A DNA stretch of 7,541 bases from a virus. Lineage: Duplodnaviria > Heunggongvirae > Uroviricota > Caudoviricetes. The stretch is taken from positions 1 through 7,541 of the IMG/VR virus record IMGVR_UViG_2645727593_000017. One strand, given 5' to 3'. Made by a program: the position numbers and the translations under genes. A model generated the notes under the pieces. The model was given only the letters and a program-made list of their open reading frames with translations. It was not told the origin of the DNA and made no database searches. This document shows, in pieces, positions 1-7,541 of this stretch (position 1 is its first letter; every line of letters begins with the position of its first letter).

Positions 1-1119
1 TCAAATAACCAACTTAACCCATTCCTGACCTCGAGTATCGTTATAGCGATCGGTGGTTGCCTGGACTTTATGTCCTAGTAATGTTTTTGTATCGATACCC
101 TGTGCACGGTACAGCCGTTCTGATAGAGAGCGTTGTTCATGAAATGTTGGCGGAGTTTTTCCTGCTGGTGGAATTATCCCAGCCAGATCCCGTGCTTTGG
201 CAAAGTAGCCGCTCAGGTTGTCTTTACTCATCGGCTTCGGTTGTTTCTGGTGCCGACTATGGATTAGATATGGACTTAATATTCTGTCTCGGCACCCATC
301 AATAACTTCTTTTAACGTTATCCCAATGGCATCACAGCGTAGTGTAAGCGGTAATGCCAGACGCATTCCGGTTTTTCCCTGGGTGATATGCAAGTGTTCG
401 TTCCACACATCTGAAAAACGCATGTGGCAAATGTCATCACGGCGCTGACCAGTAACAATCGCAAGAAGCATTGCGTTACGGATAAAGTGTTTTTCAGGCG
501 TTGTATTGTAAATTTTTTGCCAGTCTTCCATGGTGAGCCTGGCTCTGGTTACTTTAGGGATCGGTTTACGGGTAGCCTCCGGAGGATTCCATCCAGGAGG
601 AACTTCCCCTGCATGCTGTGCTTCTTTATAAATATCAACCCATAATCCACGATTTACTCTCGCTGTGCTGACCATGTCTTTATCCAGCCACTCATCCAGT
701 ATTAATGCAAAGTCTCTTACTTCCAGTTCTTTCAATGGGTGGTTTCCCAGACGGGAAACCAGGTATGCAGCCATTCGAGTTTTTTCTTTGTGAGTTGTAG
801 CTGCAATATCTCCATTTTTCAGTCGCGCGTCCTGTATTTTCAGATATCGATCAACCCATGCCTTTAATCTGATGCCCCGACGTTTTGTTGCTGACGGACT
901 TTCATCAATTTTGCGCATGAAATATTCAGCTTCTGCTGCAGCTATTCGCTGATTGGCTGTGGAAGCGATTTTTTCTGCTTTGCCTTTGTCTGTTCCGAGA
1001 CCGTGAAATTTTCCAGTCACAGGGTTTTTATACTGGTAGTAAACCCTGCCAGTTCTGCGATCAAACTTTTCGTAAAGACCGGTTACGTCAGTGCTGTTTT
1101 TTCGTGGCCTCGGTGACAT
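1..1119 (-). CDS. int: Phage tyrosine integrase (lambda Int family), complete, 372 aa
   Basis: Complete ORF with ATG at 1119-1117 and TGA at 3-1. AAGGAG Shine-Dalgarno lies 10 nt upstream of the start. The N-terminal arm-binding region resembles lambda Int (YYQYKNPVTGKFHGLGTDK). The C-terminus carries tyrosine-recombinase catalytic motifs (HEQRSLSERLY ... LLGHK ... TTDRYNDTRG, with the catalytic Tyr). The start overlaps the 3' end of xis as in lambda. Confidence 0.93.
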   Translation of the reverse strand: MSPRPRKNSTDVTGLYEKFDRRTGRVYYQYKNPVTGKFHGLGTDKGKAEKIASTANQRIAAAEAEYFMRKIDESPSATKRRGIRLKAWVDRYLKIQDARLKNGDIAATTHKEKTRMAAYLVSRLGNHPLKELEVRDFALILDEWLDKDMVSTARVNRGLWVDIYKEAQHAGEVPPGWNPPEATRKPIPKVTRARLTMEDWQKIYNTTPEKHFIRNAMLLAIVTGQRRDDICHMRFSDVWNEHLHITQGKTGMRLALPLTLRCDAIGITLKEVIDGCRDRILSPYLIHSRHQKQPKPMSKDNLSGYFAKARDLAGIIPPAGKTPPTFHEQRSLSERLYRAQGIDTKTLLGHKVQATTDRYNDTRGQEWVKLVI

Positions 1120-1339
1120 GAGTTAAAATCTCCTTCAGTGCATCATCATCGCCAGTATGAATTTCCGGCGCAATTCCCGTTTCACCAGGTCCAACAAATA
1201 CTGCCCGGCGATCTATCAGCCAACGCCCACGAATTTTTTGTGGTCTTGGAACGATGTATCCTAGTTTTCCGTATTTCACCAGGGTAGTGTTTGTTATTGG
1301 GAGACTGAACCGTTTTGGTTTCCACTCGTCGAGCGTCAT
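1088..1339 (-). CDS. xis: Excisionase (Xis/AlpA-like winged-helix DNA-binding protein), about 83 aa
   Basis: The product MTLDEWKPKRFSLPITNTTLVKYGKLGYIVPRPQKIRGRWLIDRRAVFV resembles the lambda Xis N-terminus (LTLQEW ... winged helix). The 3' end overlaps the int start by 32 nt, the usual xis-int arrangement. The start is ambiguous: in-frame ATGs at 1339, 1348 and 1387. Confidence 0.75.
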   Translation of the reverse strand: MTLDEWKPKRFSLPITNTTLVKYGKLGYIVPRPQKIRGRWLIDRRAVFVGPGETGIAPEIHTGDDDALKEILTHVTEATKKQH

Positions 1340-2951
1340 CAAGTGCATTATGGCGCTCACCTTCGAATGGGATAGCCGTTCTGGCATCGAAGTCTATGGC
1401 TTTCCCCAGCTCAACGATTGTGCGTACATCGCGATCGTTGTAGTAACGCCACGGGCAGGGGATCCCCTGCCGTTCGTATGAACGGCGCAAAATCGTGTTG
1501 TCGAAGTTGGCTCCATTTCCCCAGACCTGAACAAAAAATTCACCGGAGTTTTCGTCGATAAATTCCCGCAATTGCAGTAGTGCATCATCTAACGGGATTT
1601 CATCGGTCATAATGGCAGACTGCGCTTCACGTGATTGCTTCAGCCACCATTTAATGGTGTCACGATCAATGACTCCGCCAGCAGTTTCCAGATCGATAGT
1701 CTTACTAAATTCCGGTCCCATATCTCCGGTTTGCGGATCGAAAAATATTGCACCTATTGAGATAATCGGGGCATCAGGATTTTTTCCCATGGTTTCAAGG
1801 TCGATCATTAGATGGTCACACGTCCTGCTGGTGGATGTGATAACGCGATGACCGTTCACCGTAATTAAGGGATCTGCCGTCTCGCCAGTTTCACTATCGC
1901 TGGCGTGATCCTGAGCGCTGCCAGCATTCTCCTTGTGTGGATGTTCAGCGCCTTCCATTTTCTCCGAATCGTCTTCCTGAACTTCAACCTGGTTCTTGTC
2001 ATCGAATGTTTCCTGGTATGTTGCGTCGCCCATCACCGCACCACAATCAGGGCAGTTGCCACCGCCGGTCTGACCGCAGGCGGTGCAGACTTTTTCCACT
2101 TCCTGTTGCGCCACTGGTTCAGGCTGTTTCGTTTCTGGCTCGTTTTGTAACGCATTTGGGCTGTTTTGTTCCGCTTTCTGGTCGTTCTGTTCCGTTTCTT
2201 GCTGGTTCTGGTTCACAGAATCGCGGGTTTCAATCCCCTTCACCCATTTCGGATCATTCGGGTCGCTAATCCCTGCAACAAATTCACCACGTGATGCGGC
2301 GAGCAACTGATTGGCGTCAGGCTGGCTGATATTGGCTGCCTGCATAATTTTGTTTACTTCGTCAGCGGTAACTTTTACCGGTTCTGGCTGTGCGGTCGTG
2401 TCAGATGCACCAGTATTTTGTTGTGAACCTGAGTATGTACTGTTTTTGCGGGCGAAATATTCTTCTTTCGTGATTTCAGTAGCCCCGGCAGCCAGCGCCT
2501 TATCCAGACCAGAAAGTTTGTTTGCGCGACCGTATTTTTCGCCATCCTTGTCGGTGAAGAGGAAGTAGAACGGCCCCTCACGCTCTACAGATGGTTCGAC
2601 TTCCACTTTGCATTCGGTTTTTTCGTTGTCCGGAATTGCCGTTTCCACTGCATCAGTTTCTGGTACTGGCGACGAGAGAGTATCAGTTGCGCTCTGATTT
2701 GTTCCTTCATCTTCAAACACGCCCTTTGTAGTCAGGTATTCAGTAATGTATTTGTTCAGTGCCACAGGATCTTTGTGAATGTCGATCGGACGTTCACGGA
2801 CAAGGCCAAAAATAGTCTGGCGGTCGTAGCGAAGGGCATCAGGCTGTTTGCGCATCGATGCCGAGATACGCTTCCAGTCTTCGCGGTCGTTGTCGATAAC
2901 TTCATTTTTTGCCCAGCGATGGATGCTGCCGTCAATGTTTCCGGCATCCAC
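1182..2951 (-). CDS. Large acidic protein with C4 zinc ribbon and C-terminal DEDDh (DnaQ-like) 3'-5' exonuclease domain; probably the downstream part of an ~850-codon frame interrupted by TGA at 2961-2963
   Basis: 589-codon ORF. Exo I motif MIDLETMG at nt 1788-1808, Exo II WGNGANFDNTIL around nt 1500-1517, Exo III HNALDDA (H-x-A-x-x-D-A) at nt 1332-1352. CTACGQTGGGNCPDC (C-x2-C-x7-C-x2-C) zinc ribbon at nt 2043-2087. Q/E-rich acidic linker upstream of the ribbon. The ORF begins with GTG directly after an in-frame TGA, with no Shine-Dalgarno and no ATG until codon 33. Confidence 0.7.
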   Translation of the reverse strand: MDAGNIDGSIHRWAKNEVIDNDREDWKRISASMRKQPDALRYDRQTIFGLVRERPIDIHKDPVALNKYITEYLTTKGVFEDEGTNQSATDTLSSPVPETDAVETAIPDNEKTECKVEVEPSVEREGPFYFLFTDKDGEKYGRANKLSGLDKALAAGATEITKEEYFARKNSTYSGSQQNTGASDTTAQPEPVKVTADEVNKIMQAANISQPDANQLLAASRGEFVAGISDPNDPKWVKGIETRDSVNQNQQETEQNDQKAEQNSPNALQNEPETKQPEPVAQQEVEKVCTACGQTGGGNCPDCGAVMGDATYQETFDDKNQVEVQEDDSEKMEGAEHPHKENAGSAQDHASDSETGETADPLITVNGHRVITSTSRTCDHLMIDLETMGKNPDAPIISIGAIFFDPQTGDMGPEFSKTIDLETAGGVIDRDTIKWWLKQSREAQSAIMTDEIPLDDALLQLREFIDENSGEFFVQVWGNGANFDNTILRRSYERQGIPCPWRYYNDRDVRTIVELGKAIDFDARTAIPFEGERHNALDDARRVETKTVQSPNNKHYPGEIRKTRIHRSKTTKNSWALADRSPGSICWTW

Positions 2952-2960
2952 ATCACCAGG

Positions 2961-3737
2961 TCAGAGAGCGTAGGCCAGTTCGTCATCCAGTGTTTTCCAT
3001 GTCTGCTTATATTCGCGACGAATGACTGCAGTGACAGGGGGGATTTTTTCTGCTGAGTTTTCAGTGTGCTGTCGGTGGACTCTGGCGCGGGCGAGATCAA
3101 CAACAGACGTGTATTTTCCGGTTTCCTTGCGTTCACCTTCGCGACGTTTTTTCCAGATGCGCATCTCTGCCTGAATTTCGGGCCATTTGGCACCAGGCTT
3201 ACATTTATGCTTAACCCACCCGATGGCATGCAGCTTAAGCTCCGGATACATGGCGTTAACTTCTGGCATTTTCATCAACGCTTCAACGATATGTCCGTCG
3301 AATGTTGCCATGTCTTCCTGCAACAATTCCTGCGCGCTAATCACCATATCAACGGTGATGTTTTCACATGTGTCGAACTTAACCATGACAGCGTTCTGTA
3401 CTTCAAGGGACAGTTTGTCAAAATTGACGTTCATCGGTTCGGATTCTGGTTCGACCGGAATAAAGGAAGCGGATTCCTCATCCCAGCGGTTTTCCTGCAT
3501 ATATTCGGTATCCCAGGAGTCGATAGCAGGGCGGGGCATGCCGGGTTTATCCTCGCAGATAAGAAATTTATAAGCGCAGTCCTGAGCAGCCGGATATTGC
3601 TCCAGGAATTGCCAGGTAAATTTGGCACGGGCGCGGCGTTCGTCACCGGCTTCAATGGCAGTGGCTACAGCAACTGCACCTTCTTCCTTTATTGCCTGTT
3701 CGTCCGGAATGGCGGCGCAAATAAAGACTTTACTCAT
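2961..3737 (-). CDS. Hypothetical acidic protein, 258 aa; likely the N-terminal part of the interrupted large nuclease gene
   Basis: ATG at 3737 with GAGG 10 nt upstream. Same strand and same reading frame as ORF 1182-2951, separated from it only by TGA-CCT-GGT-GAT. The composition looks protein-like, whereas the antisense ORF 3066-3755 is F/G/L-rich, typical of a mirror frame. No recognisable motifs. Confidence 0.6.
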   Translation of the reverse strand: MSKVFICAAIPDEQAIKEEGAVAVATAIEAGDERRARAKFTWQFLEQYPAAQDCAYKFLICEDKPGMPRPAIDSWDTEYMQENRWDEESASFIPVEPESEPMNVNFDKLSLEVQNAVMVKFDTCENITVDMVISAQELLQEDMATFDGHIVEALMKMPEVNAMYPELKLHAIGWVKHKCKPGAKWPEIQAEMRIWKKRREGERKETGKYTSVVDLARARVHRQHTENSAEKIPPVTAVIRREYKQTWKTLDDELAYAL

Positions 3738-3860
3738 TTTGTTTTAACCTCATGACAGATTTAAGGATGAACAAATCCCTGCCATTGCTGGCATATAAGA
3801 ATCAAATCTGATGTATTCATTAAGCTGAATGTCGTATTGTGGCAGTTATTTTATTACTGC

Positions 3861-4082
3861 TCACCATGACTCTGCTTTTACAGGTAAACCATCACGACCA
3901 AGGAAGACTTTAATCATGGTTTCCTTAATACAGTGTTGTGTGGAAAAATCACGAATATAGAGCCGTTGTTTTTTAATGTTGTTTACCGAAGCAATATATG
4001 TTCTTCCTTTATGAATAACATAATCACCGGGAGTCACGCACTGACGAGGAATCTCATCAGTTCCGAAGTGATGAGCAATCAT
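3861..4082 (-). CDS. kilR: KilR-like small killing / cell-division inhibitor protein, 73 aa
   Basis: The [76 protein letters not shown] matches in length and sequence my recollection of Rac KilR. The start was chosen at the ATG at 4082, which has GGAG 6 nt upstream; the track ORF begins 4 codons earlier. Position left of the immunity region fits Rac gene order. Confidence 0.6.
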
Positions 4083-4655
4083 AATTATCTCCATTTTTAC
4101 AAATGAACTTTGTTGATGCGGTGCCTGGTGCCTCCAGGTGACGTTAACCAGTTAACAATTAACGCCGGATACAGAGAGCCCACCCATAACACTGTTTTTG
4201 GTTTTAACTGTTCCGCGTGCGCTCAGCCGCATTCACCGCATCACAAAACTCACTTTAAAAAGGGCGGCAGACCAGTCACGGAGTAAAACTGATACCGCCA
4301 AACGTCACCAGAAAATTGATAACAGAGGGCGTTGCAGCGGGGTTGTCACTTAAGCGTATGGTCAACCTGACAACCCGGTGTCCTCAACGGGGGAAGGAAT
4401 AACCCCGCCATACTTACCGCCGCGCCATTTCGCGGATTGCCACAACCGGAAGCGCACGGTCGACGAAAATTTAACGACAGGCTATCTATGAACCAGCTAC
4501 CTCGCCGTGCGCTTTCGCGTTATGGTCTGACTTTTCAGGGAAATATCCTTTCAGTAAACTGTCAGTGCCGGATGCTCACCCGTGTCCGGCGCAAGCACTC
4601 CACCTCACCCGTGGAGAACTCCTTAATTACCAACCTTAGCTTCGTTGGTTAGCTA

Positions 4656-4874
4656 TTAACGCGGGTATGTAATCATTCTGGCAATGGTTAATGCCGCTGC
4701 TTTTTCCAGATTGGTGATATCCTGCTCCAGAGAGGACAGATTTTCAGCCTGCTTAGCCCTGACTTCATTAGCCCATTTCAGATCCTGCGCTGCATTAATT
4801 TTCTGGTGCATCCACTCATAAAGTTCATCATTGGTATAGTCTGGCGCGATGATGACGGGTTCTCGTTTCTGCAT
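4656..4874 (-). CDS. Hypothetical small protein, 72 aa, early-left operon
   Basis: ATG at 4874 preceded by GAGGA (spacer about 6 nt). Lies directly downstream of the 42-codon ORF in a PL-driven cluster. No recognisable motif. Confidence 0.5.
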   Translation of the reverse strand: MQKREPVIIAPDYTNDELYEWMHQKINAAQDLKWANEVRAKQAENLSSLEQDITNLEKAAALTIARMITYPR

Positions 4875-4903
4875 ACTGATTCCTCGCGGTGCTGTTTCGC
4901 TTA

Positions 4904-5032
4904 TCAGCCATTAGATTTTGCCGAACTGGAAAGCACCTGTTTAAATTCGTTGAAGCTGTGAGCTTCTTCGCCTTCGGCAAGGCCTTCGAAGTATTCTTCG
5001 TAAGCCTTTTCCATGATTGTGTCGAAATCCAT
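4904..5032 (-). CDS. Hypothetical small acidic protein, 42 aa (below the ORF-track size cutoff)
   Basis: Minus-strand ORF MDFDTIMEKAYEEYFEGLAEGEEAHSFNEFKQVLSSSAKSNG. Its ATG at 5032-5030 sits 1 nt after the TGA of the upstream ORF (TGAtATG), suggesting translational coupling. GGTGGG lies upstream. Confidence 0.35.
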   Translation of the reverse strand: MDFDTIMEKAYEEYFEGLAEGEEAHSFNEFKQVLSSSAKSNG

Positions 5033-5033
5033 A

Positions 5034-5270
5034 TCACCCACCTGAATTTCTTTCCAGCCAGCGACGCGCTCCAGATTCGGTTTTAAACGTTTTGCTTTTG
5101 GTATACGTCATTGCGGTGAACGTACCGTACTGGTTGGGGAACACGCCACATACCAGAGATTCGCTGTTGCCAAGATCGATAGTATCCATGCTGACCTCAT
5201 TTCCCCTTAACGCCGGGGTAGCGGAACAAAAACCTGCTGCATAGTTATTAAAGTTGAACCCTGCCGTCAT
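5034..5270 (-). CDS. Hypothetical small protein, first gene downstream of PL (78 aa from ATG 5270, or 51 aa from ATG 5189)
   Basis: ORF ... MDTIDLGNSESLVCGVFPNQYGTFTAMTYTKSKTFKTESGARRWLERNSGG. Both candidate starts have GAGG upstream. It sits about 95 nt downstream of the predicted PL transcription start. Possibly equivalent to the small ydaF/ydaG-type Rac genes, but I cannot confirm this. Confidence 0.5.
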   Translation of the reverse strand: MTAGFNFNNYAAGFCSATPALRGNEVSMDTIDLGNSESLVCGVFPNQYGTFTAMTYTKSKTFKTESGARRWLERNSGG

Positions 5271-5370
5271 GTTCTTACGCCTCGGGCTGGCTACTTAACC
5301 CGTGACCACTGCCTGGTAACTCGAGGTATTGCCCTGTATTGTGTGGGACGGGATGGGTTGGTATGGGAAA

Positions 5371-5399
5371 ACTATAGGAAATGCCTAATTACTTGTCAA
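5371..5399 (-). promoter_or_regulatory. PL-like early leftward promoter: -35 TTGACA (5399-5394), 17-bp spacer, -10 TATAGT (5376-5371)
   Basis: Read on the minus strand: TTGACA-agtaattaggcatttcc-TATAGT. The -35 is consensus, the -10 is a 5/6 match and the spacing is optimal. Operator half-sites GCCTAAT overlap the spacer and the -35. Confidence 0.55.
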
Positions 5400-5435
5400 T
5401 AGGCTATGCCTAATAATTTGGGCGCAACCTAATAG
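5380..5435. promoter_or_regulatory. OL-like operator cluster (ATAGGC-TAT-GCCTAAT plus flanking CCTAAT half-sites)
   Basis: Positions 5393-5415 are the exact reverse complement of 6037-6059. The palindromic half-site GCCTAAT/ATTAGGC occurs at 5383-5389, 5409-5415 and, as CCTAAT, at 5429-5434. Confidence 0.5.
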
Positions 5436-5472
5436 GTGATGGTTTGTGGAAGAGGTAGTAGGAGTTAACTAA

Positions 5473-5492
5473 CGGGAACTAGGAATTTCCCG
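5473..5492 (-). terminator. Candidate stem-loop downstream of the repressor gene (CGGGAA-N8-TTCCCG), weak intrinsic terminator
   Basis: 6-bp GC-rich stem with 8-nt loop, 16 nt past the repressor stop codon. On the minus strand it is followed by TTAGTT, only a weak U-tract. Confidence 0.3.
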
Positions 5493-5507
5493 TCGGACCA
5501 TATAAGT

Positions 5508-5984
5508 TTAAGTTCCTGTCTTGGTGATGTTCTGGCTTTTCCGTTTTGATGCTTGATTTTTCAGATAGTTAGCTACCTTCATTTCCATTGCGGCAATGTA
5601 GGCGCGAACGTCATGATCAACCCAACTAGGCTCCGTAGCATTTCCAGATAAGATGAAAGCCACAATTGCTCTTTTTTCATCAGAGGCGGCTTGATAAAGG
5701 CTGTTTATGTCTAAAAGTTCACTTTTTGTATCTGAAGTGGATGGGGTTGGTATGGGGTATTCGTTAAGCCCCCAATGCTCTGGACCAACCACATCAGAAA
5801 AGAAACGCCATAGTTCTGGAAGTTTGTCTTTACTTATCGAACCTTTCTTAATCCAGTCATGGATTGATGGTGGTTGGACTTTGAAATGACGTGCGATTTC
5901 CGCCTTTGATTTGACGGCTCCTGATGCAATTTTTTTGTTAATGGCCTGCTCTATCGCTCGGCCTAAATCTTTACCACTAAGCAT
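5508..5984 (-). CDS. racR: Prophage immunity repressor, HTH_XRE type, 158 aa, no LexA-like peptidase domain (RacR-like)
   Basis: ATG at 5984 with AGGAGA upstream. HTH segment KSKAEIARHFKVQPPSIHDWIKKG. Divergent from a cro-like gene and flanked by operator/promoter inverted repeats. Length and neighbourhood (KilR-like to the left, YdaS/YdaT-like to the right) match Rac. The symbol is assigned by architecture, not by sequence recall. Confidence 0.65.
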   Translation of the reverse strand: MLSGKDLGRAIEQAINKKIASGAVKSKAEIARHFKVQPPSIHDWIKKGSISKDKLPELWRFFSDVVGPEHWGLNEYPIPTPSTSDTKSELLDINSLYQAASDEKRAIVAFILSGNATEPSWVDHDVRAYIAAMEMKVANYLKNQASKRKSQNITKTGT

Positions 5985-6036
5985 TGCTTAATAGTCTCCT
6001 ATGCGCATCGCGTTAGGCAATCCCTACTCTCGATGT

Positions 6037-6079
6037 ATTAGGCATAGCCTATTGACAATTTCATTAGGCTAAGCCTAAT
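6037..6079. promoter_or_regulatory. OR-like operators: ATTAGGC-ATA-GCCTATT (6038-6054) and perfect palindrome ATTAGGC-TAA-GCCTAAT (6063-6079)
   Basis: Two 17-bp palindromes with 7-bp arms and 3-bp centre, 25 bp apart centre to centre, overlapping PR. The left one is part of the 23-bp inverted repeat shared with OL. Confidence 0.55.
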
Positions 6080-6081
6080 AT
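6052..6081 (+). promoter_or_regulatory. PR-like early rightward promoter: -35 TTGACA (6052-6057), -10 TAATAT (6076-6081, 18-bp spacer) or CTAATA (17-bp spacer)
   Basis: Consensus -35 located 52 bp upstream of the cro-like ATG. The -10 region is embedded in the perfect operator palindrome. Confidence 0.5.
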
Positions 6082-6108
6082 TGTTGCGTGTTTTTTGGAG
6101 TTCATTCG

Positions 6109-6432
6109 ATGAAAAAAGATAACTATTCATTCAAACGAGCTTGTGCTGTTGTCGGTGGGCAATCAGCAATGGCTAGGCTTTTAGGTGTATCTCCTCCAAG
6201 CGTAAATCAATGGATCAAAGGTGTACGTCAGTTACCTGCTGAGAGATGTCCTGCGATTGAACGAGCAACAAAAGGTGGTGTCCTGTGTGAAGAACTTCGT
6301 CCTGATGTTGATTGGACATACTTACGACGCTCGTCATGTTATTCGCAGAATATGTCGATGAAGCAACCAAATGACGAAAACGATCATACCCGAAGCATCA
6401 AGAGGCAAATGATTCATGAAAATCAAACATGA
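6109..6432 (+). CDS. ydaS: Cro/YdaS-like HTH regulator, 107 aa
   Basis: ATG at 6109 with GGAG 8 nt upstream; the track ORF begins at an upstream GTG at 6088. HTH segment QSAMARLLGVSPPSVNQWIKGVRQLP. Divergent from the repressor across the operator region. Its 3' end overlaps the next gene by 17 nt. Confidence 0.7.
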   Translation: MKKDNYSFKRACAVVGGQSAMARLLGVSPPSVNQWIKGVRQLPAERCPAIERATKGGVLCEELRPDVDWTYLRRSSCYSQNMSMKQPNDENDHTRSIKRQMIHENQT

Positions 6433-6841
6433 GCACATCCGCATGGCGATGAATGCCTGGGCATACCCTGATGGTGAGAAAGTTCCTGCAGCTGAAATAG
6501 CCCGGACTTATTTCGAACTGGGGATGACGTTCCCTGAACTGTACGACGACAGCCATCCGGAAGCCCTGGCCCGTAATACCCAGAAAATTTTCCGTTGGCT
6601 GGATAAAGACACCCCTGATGCTGTTGAAAAAATGCAGGCTCTGTTACCGGCGATCGAAAAGGCGATGCCGCCTTTGCTGGTGGCCCGTATGCGCAGCCAC
6701 AGTTCTGAATATTACCGTGAGATCGTCGAACGGAGGGATCGGCTGGTGAAGGATGTCGATGATTTTGTTGCGTCAGCGGTTGTTTTGTATGACCAGATGA
6801 ATCGCGGCGGCCCGGCAGGGAATGCTGTGGTGATGCACTAA
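6416..6841 (+). CDS. ydaT: YdaT-like protein (CII-like or toxic regulator family), 141 aa
   Basis: ATG at 6416 with AGAGG upstream, overlapping the ydaS-like stop. Length and position match the Rac racR-ydaS-ydaT arrangement. The antisense ORF 6423-6881 is P/S/R-rich and judged spurious. Confidence 0.65.
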   Translation: MKIKHEHIRMAMNAWAYPDGEKVPAAEIARTYFELGMTFPELYDDSHPEALARNTQKIFRWLDKDTPDAVEKMQALLPAIEKAMPPLLVARMRSHSSEYYREIVERRDRLVKDVDDFVASAVVLYDQMNRGGPAGNAVVMH

Positions 6842-6863
6842 AAGCACGGTGTTCGGGGGTTTT

Positions 6864-7541
6864 ATGAGCAGCAAGCTTCATGGTCTTGTCTGGGAAGGGT
6901 GCGCCTTCACCGGCATGATCTTATCCAGGGTGGCGGTTATGGCCCGTCTTGCAGACTACAGCAATGACGAGGGCGTGTCATGGCCTGCCATTGAAACTAT
7001 CCGGCGTCAGATCGGTGCAAGAAGTGAATCCACAGTGAAATCGGCTATTGCAGAACTGGCGAAAGAGGGCTGGCTGACGAAGGAAGAGCGTAAGGTCGGT
7101 GGGCGTAATGTAAGCAATATCTATCGGCTTAATGTGGAAAAACTCGAAGCAGCTGCGGCGGCGGCGCGTGAGTCATATAAACCGAAAAGAAAAATTAGCC
7201 CGGCAAAAAATGACCCGTTAACAGTTGACCCGTCAAATATTGACCCCTCAACGGTTGACCCGTCAAATTTTGATGGATCAACTGTTGATAAAAAACTGCC
7301 GATTAGGGGGGCGATGATTGACCCCGATCCGTCAGTATTAAAACCTGATCCGTCAGATAAAAGATCTTCTTGTCCGGACGCTTCGCAACCGGACCCGCAG
7401 ACGGCTGAACAGGATTTTTTAACCCGACACCCTGACGCGGTTGTGTTCAGTGCGAAAAAACGCCAGTGGGGAAGTCAGGAAGATTTGGTGTGCGCACAGT
7501 GGATCTGGGGACGAATCGTGAGTCTTTACGAGCAGGCGGCC
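6864..7541 (+). CDS. Replication initiator, lambda O-like, with N-terminal winged-helix and internal iterons; 3'-partial (runs off the window)
   Basis: ATG at 6864 with GGGGG upstream; open to the window end (226 codons). The N-terminus (ARLADYSNDEGVSWPAIETIRRQIGARSESTVKSAIAELAKEGWL) looks like a helix-turn-helix replication protein. Tandem DNA iterons inside the coding sequence encode DPLTVDPSNIDPSTVDPSNFDGSTVD. Confidence 0.7.
   Translation, partial: MSSKLHGLVWEGCAFTGMILSRVAVMARLADYSNDEGVSWPAIETIRRQIGARSESTVKSAIAELAKEGWLTKEERKVGGRNVSNIYRLNVEKLEAAAAAARESYKPKRKISPAKNDPLTVDPSNIDPSTVDPSNFDGSTVDKKLPIRGAMIDPDPSVLKPDPSDKRSSCPDASQPDPQTAEQDFLTRHPDAVVFSAKKRQWGSQEDLVCAQWIWGRIVSLYEQAA
7209..7300. repeat. 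Iteron array (candidate phage replication origin) with adjacent A-rich tract
   Basis: Four or five copies of a 15-16-bp unit with an internal palindrome TTGAC-CC-GTCAA: tgacccgttaacag, ttgacccgtcaaatat, ttgacccctcaacgg, ttgacccgtcaaattt, tgatggatcaactg. These are followed by ttgataaaaaactg. Confidence 0.55.

Follow-up and report, generated by a model that had tools for sequence, protein, structure and literature searches.

In the lambda switch, the repressor gene is flanked by two early promoters that fire outward, each overlapped by an operator cluster, and the locus described here shares this plan (PMC8630535, PMC9638921). In the Rac prophage of E. coli K-12, which has the same gene order and protein family, several parts of such a switch are experimentally established. 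That RacR binds the OR-side sites and represses transcription was demonstrated with EMSA, ChIP enrichment, DNase-I footprinting and reporter assays (PMC5700373; PMC9638921), and the footprinted operators have the form ATTAGGC-n3-GCCTAAT (PMC9638921). The rightward promoter PydaST, with the arrangement TTGACA-18-TAATAT, was mapped by primer extension and is killed by a -10 mutation (PMC9638921; PMC11879457). RacR forms octamers in solution as determined by size exclusion (PMC11014345), and in the published interpretation the octamer serves four sites inside OR rather than a loop between OL and OR. When RacR falls, ydaG, ydaF, kilR, racC, recET and xis/int rise by 40-100-fold (PMC6765115; PMC11014345; bioRxiv 10.64898/2026.09.06.749655). 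The PaaR2/YdaS/YdaT switch of CP-933P in E. coli O157:H7 has the same YdaS/YdaT partners, PL and PR with identical -35 and -10 elements, operator sets that flank the repressor operon on both sides and an octameric repressor; it differs in having another repressor, an unrelated operator sequence (GTTTAGTAA-type repeats) and a toxin-antitoxin pair that is co-transcribed with the repressor (PMC8630535). Short HTH repressors that lack an S24 domain, are not cleavable and are inactivated by antirepressors are known from the Gifsy phages (PMC3121763).

We analyzed 7,541 nucleotides of a Caudoviricetes record (IMGVR_UViG_2645727593_000017, positions 1 to 7,541), referred to below as the window. The region at 5371-6081 is very probably the immunity switch of an E. 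coli lambdoid prophage of the Rac family, in which both outward promoters are covered by RacR operators. Its right half, namely RacR binding at OR and the rightward promoter, is already published for K-12 Rac; because this half has been mapped experimentally there, the finding is correct but mostly ordinary. The features are collected in Table 1.

Table 1. Features of the immunity region, in order of position in the window
Feature	Position	Strand	Description
Predicted leftward early promoter (PL analog)	5371-5399	-	TTGACA 5399-5394, 17-nt spacer, TATAGT 5376-5371; 11/12 matches; predicted start near 5364
OL1	5373-5389	.	TATAGGAAATGCCTAAT on + strand; over leftward -10; three mismatches in this allele
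Left arm of inverted repeat	5393-5415		TTGTCAATAGGCTATGCCTAATA
OL2	5398-5414	.	AATAGGCTATGCCTAAT on + strand; joined to leftward -35; core of left arm
OL3 candidate	5417-5433	.	3 mismatches; ATTAGGT half-site on minus strand
Hairpin between racR stop and OL	5473-5494	-	8-bp stem in minimum-energy fold
racR, prophage repressor (CI analog)	5508-5984	-	ORF, 158 aa; N-terminal Xre/Cro-type HTH, disordered linker ~80-90, helical C-terminal domain
Fourth OR-side site (published as O3 or fourth operator)	5976-5992	.	ACTAAGCATTGCTTAAT; spans racR ATG
OR3	6012-6028	.	weaker site GTTAGGCAATCCCTACT; 3 mismatches; racR promoter region
Right arm of inverted repeat	6036-6058		TATTAGGCATAGCCTATTGACAA
OR2 (published O2, PMC9638921)	6037-6053	.	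ATTAGGCATAGCCTATT; joined to rightward -35; core of right arm
Rightward early promoter (PR analog, PydaST)	6052-6081	+	TTGACA 6052-6057, 18-nt spacer, TAATAT 6076-6081; 10/12 matches
OR1 (published O1)	6063-6079	.	perfect 8-1-8 palindrome ATTAGGCTAAGCCTAAT; 0 motif mismatches; over rightward -10
ydaS, Cro analog, first gene of rightward operon	6109-6432	+	Pfam PF15943 3.8e-30; P22_Cro 1e-8
ydaT, CII analog	6416-6841	+	Pfam PF06254 2.8e-10 (PMC9986795, PMC11879457)

The repressor and its neighbors

The original prediction placed a 158-aa repressor gene between two inverted arms, and this gene is the Rac prophage repressor racR. Its product scored 245.8 bits against the RacR equivalog NF049929 of NCBIfam (cut-off, 200 bits) and is 91% identical to K-12 RacR. 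An annotated racR is present in 1088 of 5426 complete E. coli genomes, and the DNA match to the annotated racR loci reached 99.8%. The absence of a LexA-like autocleavage domain, also predicted, was borne out: RacR had no Pfam match, S24 included, and its AlphaFold2 model (mean pLDDT 79) is all-helical, with C-terminal helices at 93-99, 102-112 and 124-152. In some relatives, the same DNA-binding domain is joined to S24, and these do score for PF00717. A sequence search of solved structures with RacR gave nothing significant (best E = 0.64). When the model was compared with the PDB by Foldseek, the N-terminal domain had only sub-threshold resemblances to Xre/Cro/lambda-repressor folds (E at least 0.09), among them 5d4z, a Salmonella phage repressor, and 1lli, the N-domain of lambda repressor (E about 0.1-0.3 for these two); the C-terminal domain had no informative fold match.

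The ydaS-ydaT pair adjoins racR in divergent orientation and the two genes overlap at 6416-6432. A YdaT-box-like repeat with one mismatch to the box lies over the ydaT ATG at 6409-6426. With divergent Cro and CII analogs, repressor autoregulation and an octamer-forming repressor, the system resembles lambda, from which RacR itself departs in its helical C-terminal domain and the lack of an S24 autopeptidase. Compared with the Gifsy-type repressors, RacR is likewise a short HTH protein lacking S24, but no sequence homology was detected, the fold matches to 5d4z were below significance, and neither an antirepressor gene nor a LexA box above chance was found in the 7.5-kb window. An SOS-controlled antirepressor within the window was therefore rejected, the LexA-box matches being no better than chance.

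Operator motif sites on both sides of racR

The motif ATTAGGC-N3-GCCTAAT, with up to three mismatches allowed, occurred at seven sites in the window against 0.2 expected, a number reached in none of 200 shuffles. All seven sites lie within 5373-5433 or 5976-6079, flanking racR or overlapping its start. The same clustering, with none elsewhere, was seen in 13 kb of K-12 Rac and in 18.8 kb of the O103 locus. The proposal that this 17-bp operator is the recognition sequence of the repressor agrees with the published footprint-derived consensus (T/A)TAGGC-n3-GCCTA(T/A) (PMC9638921). As in lambda, the operators are 17-bp pseudo-palindromes about 2.4 helical turns apart on each promoter, although the operator sequence is not the same.

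The right side holds three OR sites and one more over the racR ATG, and the left side two good sites and one conserved half-site. Lambda differs in having three OL sites, and no counterpart of the site over the repressor start codon is known from lambda. Only two OR sites had been named originally; both are real, but the list was incomplete, missing OR3 and the site over the racR ATG. The predicted perfect palindrome over the PR -10 region was found as OR1, and from its position relative to TAATAT it overlaps the rightward -10. Among 40 OR haplotypes, the half-sites of OR1 are invariant and its N3 is hypervariable, and OR3 shows little variation. In K-12, the equivalent of OR1 is protected at the lowest RacR concentration and the region containing OR3 at higher ones, and the sequence of the fourth site is the same as that named for K-12 (PMC9638921). 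An operator at the repressor ATG is kept in the Mixta, Proteus, Klebsiella, Achromobacter and Nitrosomonas relatives.

The variation among 86 E. coli-type loci follows the half-sites. Only 6 of 60 half-site columns varied, whereas 82 of 199 other intergenic columns did (Fisher p = 4e-6); by comparison with the same half-site columns, the N3 spacers varied in 9 of 15 (p = 1e-4). This pattern is consistent with RacR dimers that would bind the 17-bp operators through the half-sites TTAGGC/GCCTAA and leave the 3-bp center free.

A promoter scan of 5000-6500 returned exactly two promoter-like sites, both outward. The claim that a TTGACA -35 box of the rightward promoter lies within the repeat arm holds, the hexamers and the spacing being those of the primer-extension-mapped K-12 PydaST (PMC9638921; PMC5700373). 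On the right side, OR1 and OR2 would cover the -10 and -35 of this strong promoter, which would drive ydaS and ydaT. OR3 and the ATG site, located in the racR promoter region, would provide autoregulation. The racR -10 hexamers mapped in K-12 (AGTAAG and GAGAAT) are changed in this allele (TCGAGA and GAGACT), so the details of racR autoregulation may differ from those in K-12. Otherwise, the two loci are alike in their operator half-sites and in the rightward promoter (PMC9638921), and their DNA is 86.7% identical over 5300-6150; OR1 is perfect here and has one mismatch in K-12.

The inverted repeat

The window was predicted to contain a perfect 23-bp inverted repeat, and the repeat is real. 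The left arm stands where it was placed, but the right arm is at 6036-6058 and not at 6037-6059, a shift of one base. A repeat finder gave 100% complementarity between the arms with a gap of 620 nt. When the window was shuffled 200 times, the longest inverted match had a mean of 13 and a maximum of 18, the longest ones being self-palindromes; by calculation, a pair of distinct 23-nt arms would arise by chance about 4e-7 times in a sequence of 7.5 kb. The repeat is no chance match. Each arm consists of one 17-bp operator joined to the TTGACA -35 box of an outward promoter. The two promoter-operator modules would be inverted copies of one design, that is, an operator, TTGACA, a linker and an operator over the -10; their inverted orientation around the repressor gene is what is seen as a 23-bp inverted repeat.

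A perfect complementarity of 23 nt so far above chance also suits the idea that the arms were selected to pair, forming a DNA cruciform or a long-range RNA stem across racR, and that pairing, not protein binding, is functional. The K-12 transcripts that run from inside ydaS through racR (PracR4; PMC11879457) would fit such a stem. However, the N3 center of OR2 or OL2 was changed in 18 of the 86 loci, in five variant classes, and in no case was the change compensated on the opposite arm, which argues that the arms are not under selection to pair. Invariance is confined to the protein half-sites and the -35 and does not extend over the whole repeat. The longest perfect OL/OR match varies from 12 to 23 bp between alleles; in K-12, one N3-center base breaks the OL2/OR2 repeat and leaves 14 bp, and in Mixta and a Pseudomonadota MAG the longest match is 9 bp, yet the operators are kept. 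We therefore rejected the arms as a base-pairing unit and consider such pairing highly improbable. Perfect identity over all 23 bp is peculiar to this allele among those compared and no defining feature of the system.

A single gene flanked by perfect inverted repeats is also what a small mobile cassette would look like, with the arms as its terminal inverted repeats and the repressor gene as the cargo brought into the prophage. The immunity region is indeed a mosaic module, and homology breaks off sharply near 5366. That break, however, falls beyond the left arm, where the promoter starts; the module reaches past the arms to OL1 and OR1, and extra copies of the same half-site occur outside the repeat. 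racR is the only gene between the arms, with no transposase or recombinase there, and the outer flanks (AATTAC at 5387-5392 and TTTCAT at 6059-6064) show no direct duplication. In the Klebsiella phage KpF5, a stretch of 1.9 kb that includes another gene separates the two operator sets. As the transposase and the target-site duplication expected of it are both missing, an insertion-sequence-like cassette was rejected, and we give this origin hardly any credence. The arms are best read as parts of two inverted promoter-operator modules.

The left operators and the predicted leftward promoter

The original prediction of a TTGACA -35 within the left arm was matched in the promoter scan by a minus-strand TTGACA-17-TATAGT, a predicted promoter whose expected start corresponds to about 1,419,618 in MG1655. 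OL1 and OL2, located about 100 bp beyond the end of racR, would likewise cover the -10 and -35 of this promoter, which would drive the early-left operon. From sequence comparison and the published derepression of the leftward genes, we infer that the promoter is active and that RacR binds OL and represses it. Against this count the number of good OL sites, only two, and the three mismatches of OL1 in this allele. Homology to phages of another immunity type stops at about 5366, just downstream of the leftward -10. The early-left leader sequence is common to this locus and CP-933P, as seen in phage Evi, where by our own reading GTTTAG-type repeats are found in the sequence past the homology boundary.

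It could in principle be that the leftward genes are derepressed indirectly, for example through YdaS. In its full form, this explanation accepts the right operators as real and takes the left cluster as a non-functional relic with no active leftward promoter, the leftward genes being switched on after YdaS and YdaT are expressed. K-12 Rac is a decaying prophage, and in our full-text literature searches neither a description of a Rac OL or PL nor a left-side footprint or transcription start was found, both of which are in line with a relic. The conservation of the left side speaks against it. The OL half-sites and both PL hexamers are conserved as well as the OR ones while the neighboring linkers vary; among 24 OL haplotypes the OL2 half-sites are invariant, and the PL hexamers are nearly invariant among the E. 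coli-type loci. The K-12 locus (L001) carries the same OL pair and leftward promoter at 8629-8670. The OL2 20-mer ATTAGGCATAGCCTATTGAC is identical in E. coli, the Pseudomonadota MAG (RacR 57% identical) and Proteus (60%). The layout is kept in genera with repressors only 57-63% identical: Mixta, the Pseudomonadota MAG and Proteus each have a pair of operators past the repressor gene, spaced 25 bp apart, with TTGAC(A) joined to OL2 and OL1 over a -10. The OL2/-35/OL1/-10 order recurs in KpF5, the record of which is a complete phage genome from hospital wastewater; here an inserted DUF450 gene and a canonical terminator precede the operator pair, which has OL1 over the -10 of TTGACA-17-TAATAT and is located 1.4 kb downstream. 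Moreover, the closely analogous CP-933P has a tested PL with OL1-3 that is repressed by PaaR2 (PMC8630535). A relic is thus very unlikely. As to OL3, its racR-proximal half-site is invariant among the OL haplotypes and the other half is variable; since only one half is conserved, it is probably a weak site or a half-site.

Other elements around the leftward transcript were also considered. The hairpin past the racR stop carries a compensatory G:C to A:T change relative to K-12, and the canonical terminator of KpF5 is at the equivalent position; it is a candidate weak terminator or 3' stabilizer of the racR transcript. The 5' end of the leftward leader is C-rich and is thus a possible Rho-loading site. 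A put-like antiterminator RNA in this leader (5275-5366, minus strand) was rejected as unsupported, its fold being no better than shuffles (z = 0.6) with no Rfam match. Unlike in lambda, neither an N gene nor a nut site was identified beyond the predicted leftward promoter. The early-left operon comprises a DUF1391/ydaF-like gene, ydfC, DicF, dicB, a Rv2179c-type exonuclease, xis and int; its ydfC, DicF, dicB and exonuclease are Qin-like, where K-12 Rac has kilR, racC and recET.

A possible loop and its meaning

The OL-OR distance in lambda is 2.3 kb. Here it is only about 0.64 kb, and the OL2-OR2 center distance is 639 or 641 bp in the 86 loci. In the distant relatives, the calculated distances of 614-641 bp have no consistent helical phase, so phasing is uninformative. 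As a tentative proposal, somewhat on the doubtful side, the left operators in 5373-5433 (OL1, OL2 and the half-site) and their promoter may be functional, and a RacR octamer may bridge OL1-OL2 and OR1-OR2, holding racR in a loop of about 640 bp. Such a lambda-style loop is an alternative reading of the RacR octamer. If true, it would be among the shortest in lambdoid switches and would determine how tight repression is and how strongly racR is autoregulated.

No new principle is involved: the design is that of lambda with another repressor family, and the right half of the switch was already characterized biochemically. For annotation, its value lies in a switch carried by about a fifth of complete E. 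coli genomes. Loss of RacR kills the cell or causes the prophage to excise. If the left half is functional, a promoter under RacR control immediately past racR would directly explain the derepression of distant Rac genes, that is, the strong rise of kilR, recET and xis/int when RacR falls. In this mosaic, the same leftward promoter would drive the division inhibitors DicF and DicB together with the excision genes.

An inverted repeat with outward promoter-like sites around racR

The repressor gene is a 158-aa ORF (5508-5984, minus strand) that scores 245.8 bits against the NCBIfam RacR equivalog model (cut-off 200) and lies between the two arms of a 23-nt inverted repeat. The repeat finder placed the arms at 5393-5415 and 6036-6058 with 100% complementarity. 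The existence, length and complementarity of the repeat in the original prediction therefore stand, and its right arm, given as 6037-6059, is off by one base. When the window was shuffled 200 times, the longest inverted matches had a mean of 13 and a maximum of 18, the longest ones being self-palindromes. The motif ATTAGGC-N3-GCCTAAT, with up to three mismatches, occurs at seven sites in the window against 0.2 expected, all confined to two clusters (5373-5433 and 5976-6079), and a consensus scan of 5000-6500 returned exactly two promoter-like sites, each firing outward. These clusters and scan matches bear out the proposed operator and outward TTGACA promoter on each side of the gene, the left side as a prediction. 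The palindrome described over the -10 of the rightward promoter is a perfect 8-1-8 site at 6063-6079.

Coordinates of promoters and neighbouring features (window positions, except for the Klebsiella phage KpF5 locus L097)
Feature	Position	Strand	Remarks
Leftward promoter	TTGACA 5399-5394, 17 nt, TATAGT to 5371	minus	consensus scan; predicted
Rightward promoter	TTGACA 6052-6057, 18 nt, TAATAT 6076-6081	plus	consensus scan
YdaS-family gene	6109-6432		right of racR; Cro analog of Rac (PMC5917428; PMC11879457)
YdaT-family gene	6416-6841		right of racR; CII analog of Rac (PMC5917428; PMC11879457)
DicF sRNA	4262-4313	minus	Rfam RF00039, 74.2 bits, gathering score 48
KpF5 OL pair and leftward promoter	L097 816-859
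KpF5 DUF450 gene, 1.15 kb	L097 928-2082		separates repressor from OL pair

The right half and the known Rac switch

The system is the already known Rac immunity region. The 851-bp segment 5300-6150 matched annotated racR loci in 1088 of the 5426 complete E. coli genomes, with an identity of 99.8% to O103:H2-type strains and 86.7% to K-12 Rac. The 123-bp racR-ydaS intergenic region of K-12 Rac is bound by RacR in EMSA, where three complexes form, and in vivo (PMC5700373). Footprinting with DNase I, together with alignment, defined the half-site as ATTAGGC and the operator consensus as (T/A)TAGGC-n3-GCCTA(T/A), with one operator over the ydaST promoter and one across the racR ATG, and the lowest RacR concentration already protected the ydaST promoter region (PMC9638921). 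That promoter is TTGACA, 18 nt, TAATAT by primer extension, and a -10 mutation abolishes it (PMC9638921; PMC11879457). The predicted repressor recognition sequence agrees with the published operator (PMC9638921). Because operator and promoter were both published, the right half of the finding is a correct re-derivation from sequence alone; the observation is confirmed and its interpretation supported. The locus differs from K-12 in OR1 (6063-6079), a perfect palindrome here with one mismatch there, and in the -10 hexamers of the two mapped K-12 racR promoters, AGTAAG and GAGAAT, which read TCGAGA and GAGACT here. Farther right, ATGATTCATGAAAATCAA at 6409-6426 departs at one position from the published YdaT box TTGATT-N6-AATCAA and covers the ydaT start codon, as the box also does in K-12 Rac and CP-933P (PMC9986795; PMC11879457).

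A predicted operator-promoter module on the left

RacR runs as an octamer in size-exclusion chromatography (PMC11014345), for which the Rac literature accounts by four sites inside the right-hand region; the searchable Rac literature names no operator and no promoter downstream of racR. In the direction of transcription, the left module is ATTAGGCATAGCCTAT-TGACAA-GTA-ATTAGGCATTTCCTATAGT and the right module ATTAGGCATAGCCTAT-TGACAA-TTTC-ATTAGGCTAAGCCTAATAT. In both, one operator is fused to the -35 and, after a short linker, another covers the -10; the spacing differs by one base, and the 23-bp repeat is the identical first part of the two modules.

Among 86 E. coli-type loci (40 different sequences on the right and 24 on the left), the promoter hexamers are nearly invariant. 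Variation is confined to 6 of the 60 half-site columns, compared with 82 of the 199 remaining intergenic columns (Fisher p = 4e-6) and 9 of the 15 columns in the N3 centres (Fisher p = 1e-4). In Mixta, a Pseudomonadota MAG and Proteus, whose RacR is 57-63% identical, an operator pair 25 bp apart lies some 100 bp beyond the stop codon, the first operator being fused to TTGAC(A) and the second lying over a -10; E. coli, the MAG and Proteus all carry the 20-mer ATTAGGCATAGCCTATTGAC unchanged. In the complete genome of Klebsiella phage KpF5, the OL pair and a TTGACA-17-TAATAT promoter are found 1.4 kb downstream of the repressor gene, and an inserted DUF450 gene and a canonical terminator come in between. 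Lambda has a matching order, cI-rex-terminator-OL, with rex in the position of the DUF450 gene. Depletion of RacR is accompanied by a 40- to over 100-fold rise of Rac genes to the left of racR (PMC6765115; PMC11014345; bioRxiv 10.64898/2026.09.06.749655). The CP-933P switch offers an analogy, as its PL with OL1-3 was tested and has hexamers identical to those of its PR (PMC8630535). This evidence favours a functional left module, in which RacR would bind at OL and the leftward promoter would be active. Of the whole system, only the left module and the lambda-like loop that such a module would permit seem to be absent from the searchable literature.

At the racR-proximal edge of OL, ACCTAATAGGT (5427-5437) is an 11-bp palindrome of two back-to-back half-site-like sequences, nearly invariant across haplotypes with two minor variants at its edge.

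The perfection of the repeat itself is not meaningful. Across alleles, the longest perfect OL/OR match is anything between 12 and 23 bp; K-12, with one different base in the N3 centre, has 14 bp, while Mixta and the MAG have 9 bp. If the arms served as a pairing unit, a change in one should be matched in the other; the centre of OR2 or OL2 is changed in 18 loci, with a compensating change in the other arm in none of them, and this reading is disfavoured. Neither a transposase between the arms nor a target duplication outside them was found. The arms are kept separately, as protein and polymerase sites.

Homology to phages whose immunity type differs, Evi among them, spans the leftward leader and ends at about 5366, directly downstream of the predicted -10, where the joint of an immunity module is expected; this boundary, too, speaks for a functional left module. 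The leader is about 175 nt long (5190-5365, minus), and its first 65 nt or so (5300-5365) are 86-90% identical in the different-immunity phages Evi, Tritos and several vB_Eco phages; by eye, the similarity to Evi continues across the entire leader. At its 5' end the leader is rich in C and poor in G, and it folds no better than shuffled sequences; a role in Rho loading, or as another kind of leader element, is possible. An 8-bp hairpin (5473-5494, minus) between the stop codon of racR and OL shows a compensatory G:C to A:T difference in K-12 and may act as a weak terminator barring racR transcripts from the early-left operon; the KpF5 canonical terminator is at the equivalent place (L097 899-878).

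RacR domains and the genes it would control

That RacR has no LexA-like autocleavage domain, as originally predicted, is supported by the lack of a Pfam match and by an all-helical AlphaFold2 model (36 homologs, mean pLDDT 79), whereas the S24 peptidase is a beta-rich fold. The model has a helix-turn-helix domain at the N-terminus, a linker that is disordered around residues 80-90 and three C-terminal helices, and Foldseek related the N-domain to Xre/Cro/lambda-repressor structures at sub-threshold similarity only. Published modelling gives a lambda-like N-terminal domain and an unrelated C-terminal oligomerisation domain (PMC11014345). Proteins of Achromobacter, Aeromonas and Pectobacterium (including P0101, P0102 and P0114) share the DNA-binding domain, at 65-86% identity across the N-terminal 77-79 residues (a little less than half of RacR), and have a Peptidase_S24 domain fused to it. 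The operator-recognition module thus occurs joined to C-terminal domains of both kinds, SOS-cleavable and non-cleavable. The operator motif lies upstream in two Achromobacter loci (L011, L013) and is degenerate in the Aeromonas locus (L014); the Achromobacter S24 fusions with the motif upstream are a clear case of domain swapping within the repressor family. No LexA box was found within the window. Competition by YdaS and an accidental silencing caused by an R-M controller protein are candidate routes of inactivation described in the literature.

Some features of the window lie outside the switch. Four tandem repeats of 15-bp period with a TTGACCCGT core, adjoined by a 33-nt inverted repeat (7190-7286), look like an iteron-type origin within the replication-initiator gene. 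An in-frame TGA (2961-2963, minus) breaks the exonuclease frame into ORFs 2961-3737 and 1182-2951, whereas its counterpart in the related O103:H2 locus is annotated as a single unbroken 2472-bp gene, a difference suggestive of prophage decay. Identity to that locus is only 95-97.5% in the left part of the window, and 3822-4102 has no counterpart there. A sub-threshold STnc100-like match lies at 4109-4246.

Leftward of racR, a mosaic early-left operon holds a DUF1391 gene, ydfC-like ORFs, the DicF sRNA, dicB, an Rv2179c-type exonuclease, xis and int, and is of the Qin type, unlike that of K-12 Rac. With a Rac-type immunity region placed upstream of this Qin-like ydfC-dicF-dicB operon, the division inhibitors would fall under RacR control.
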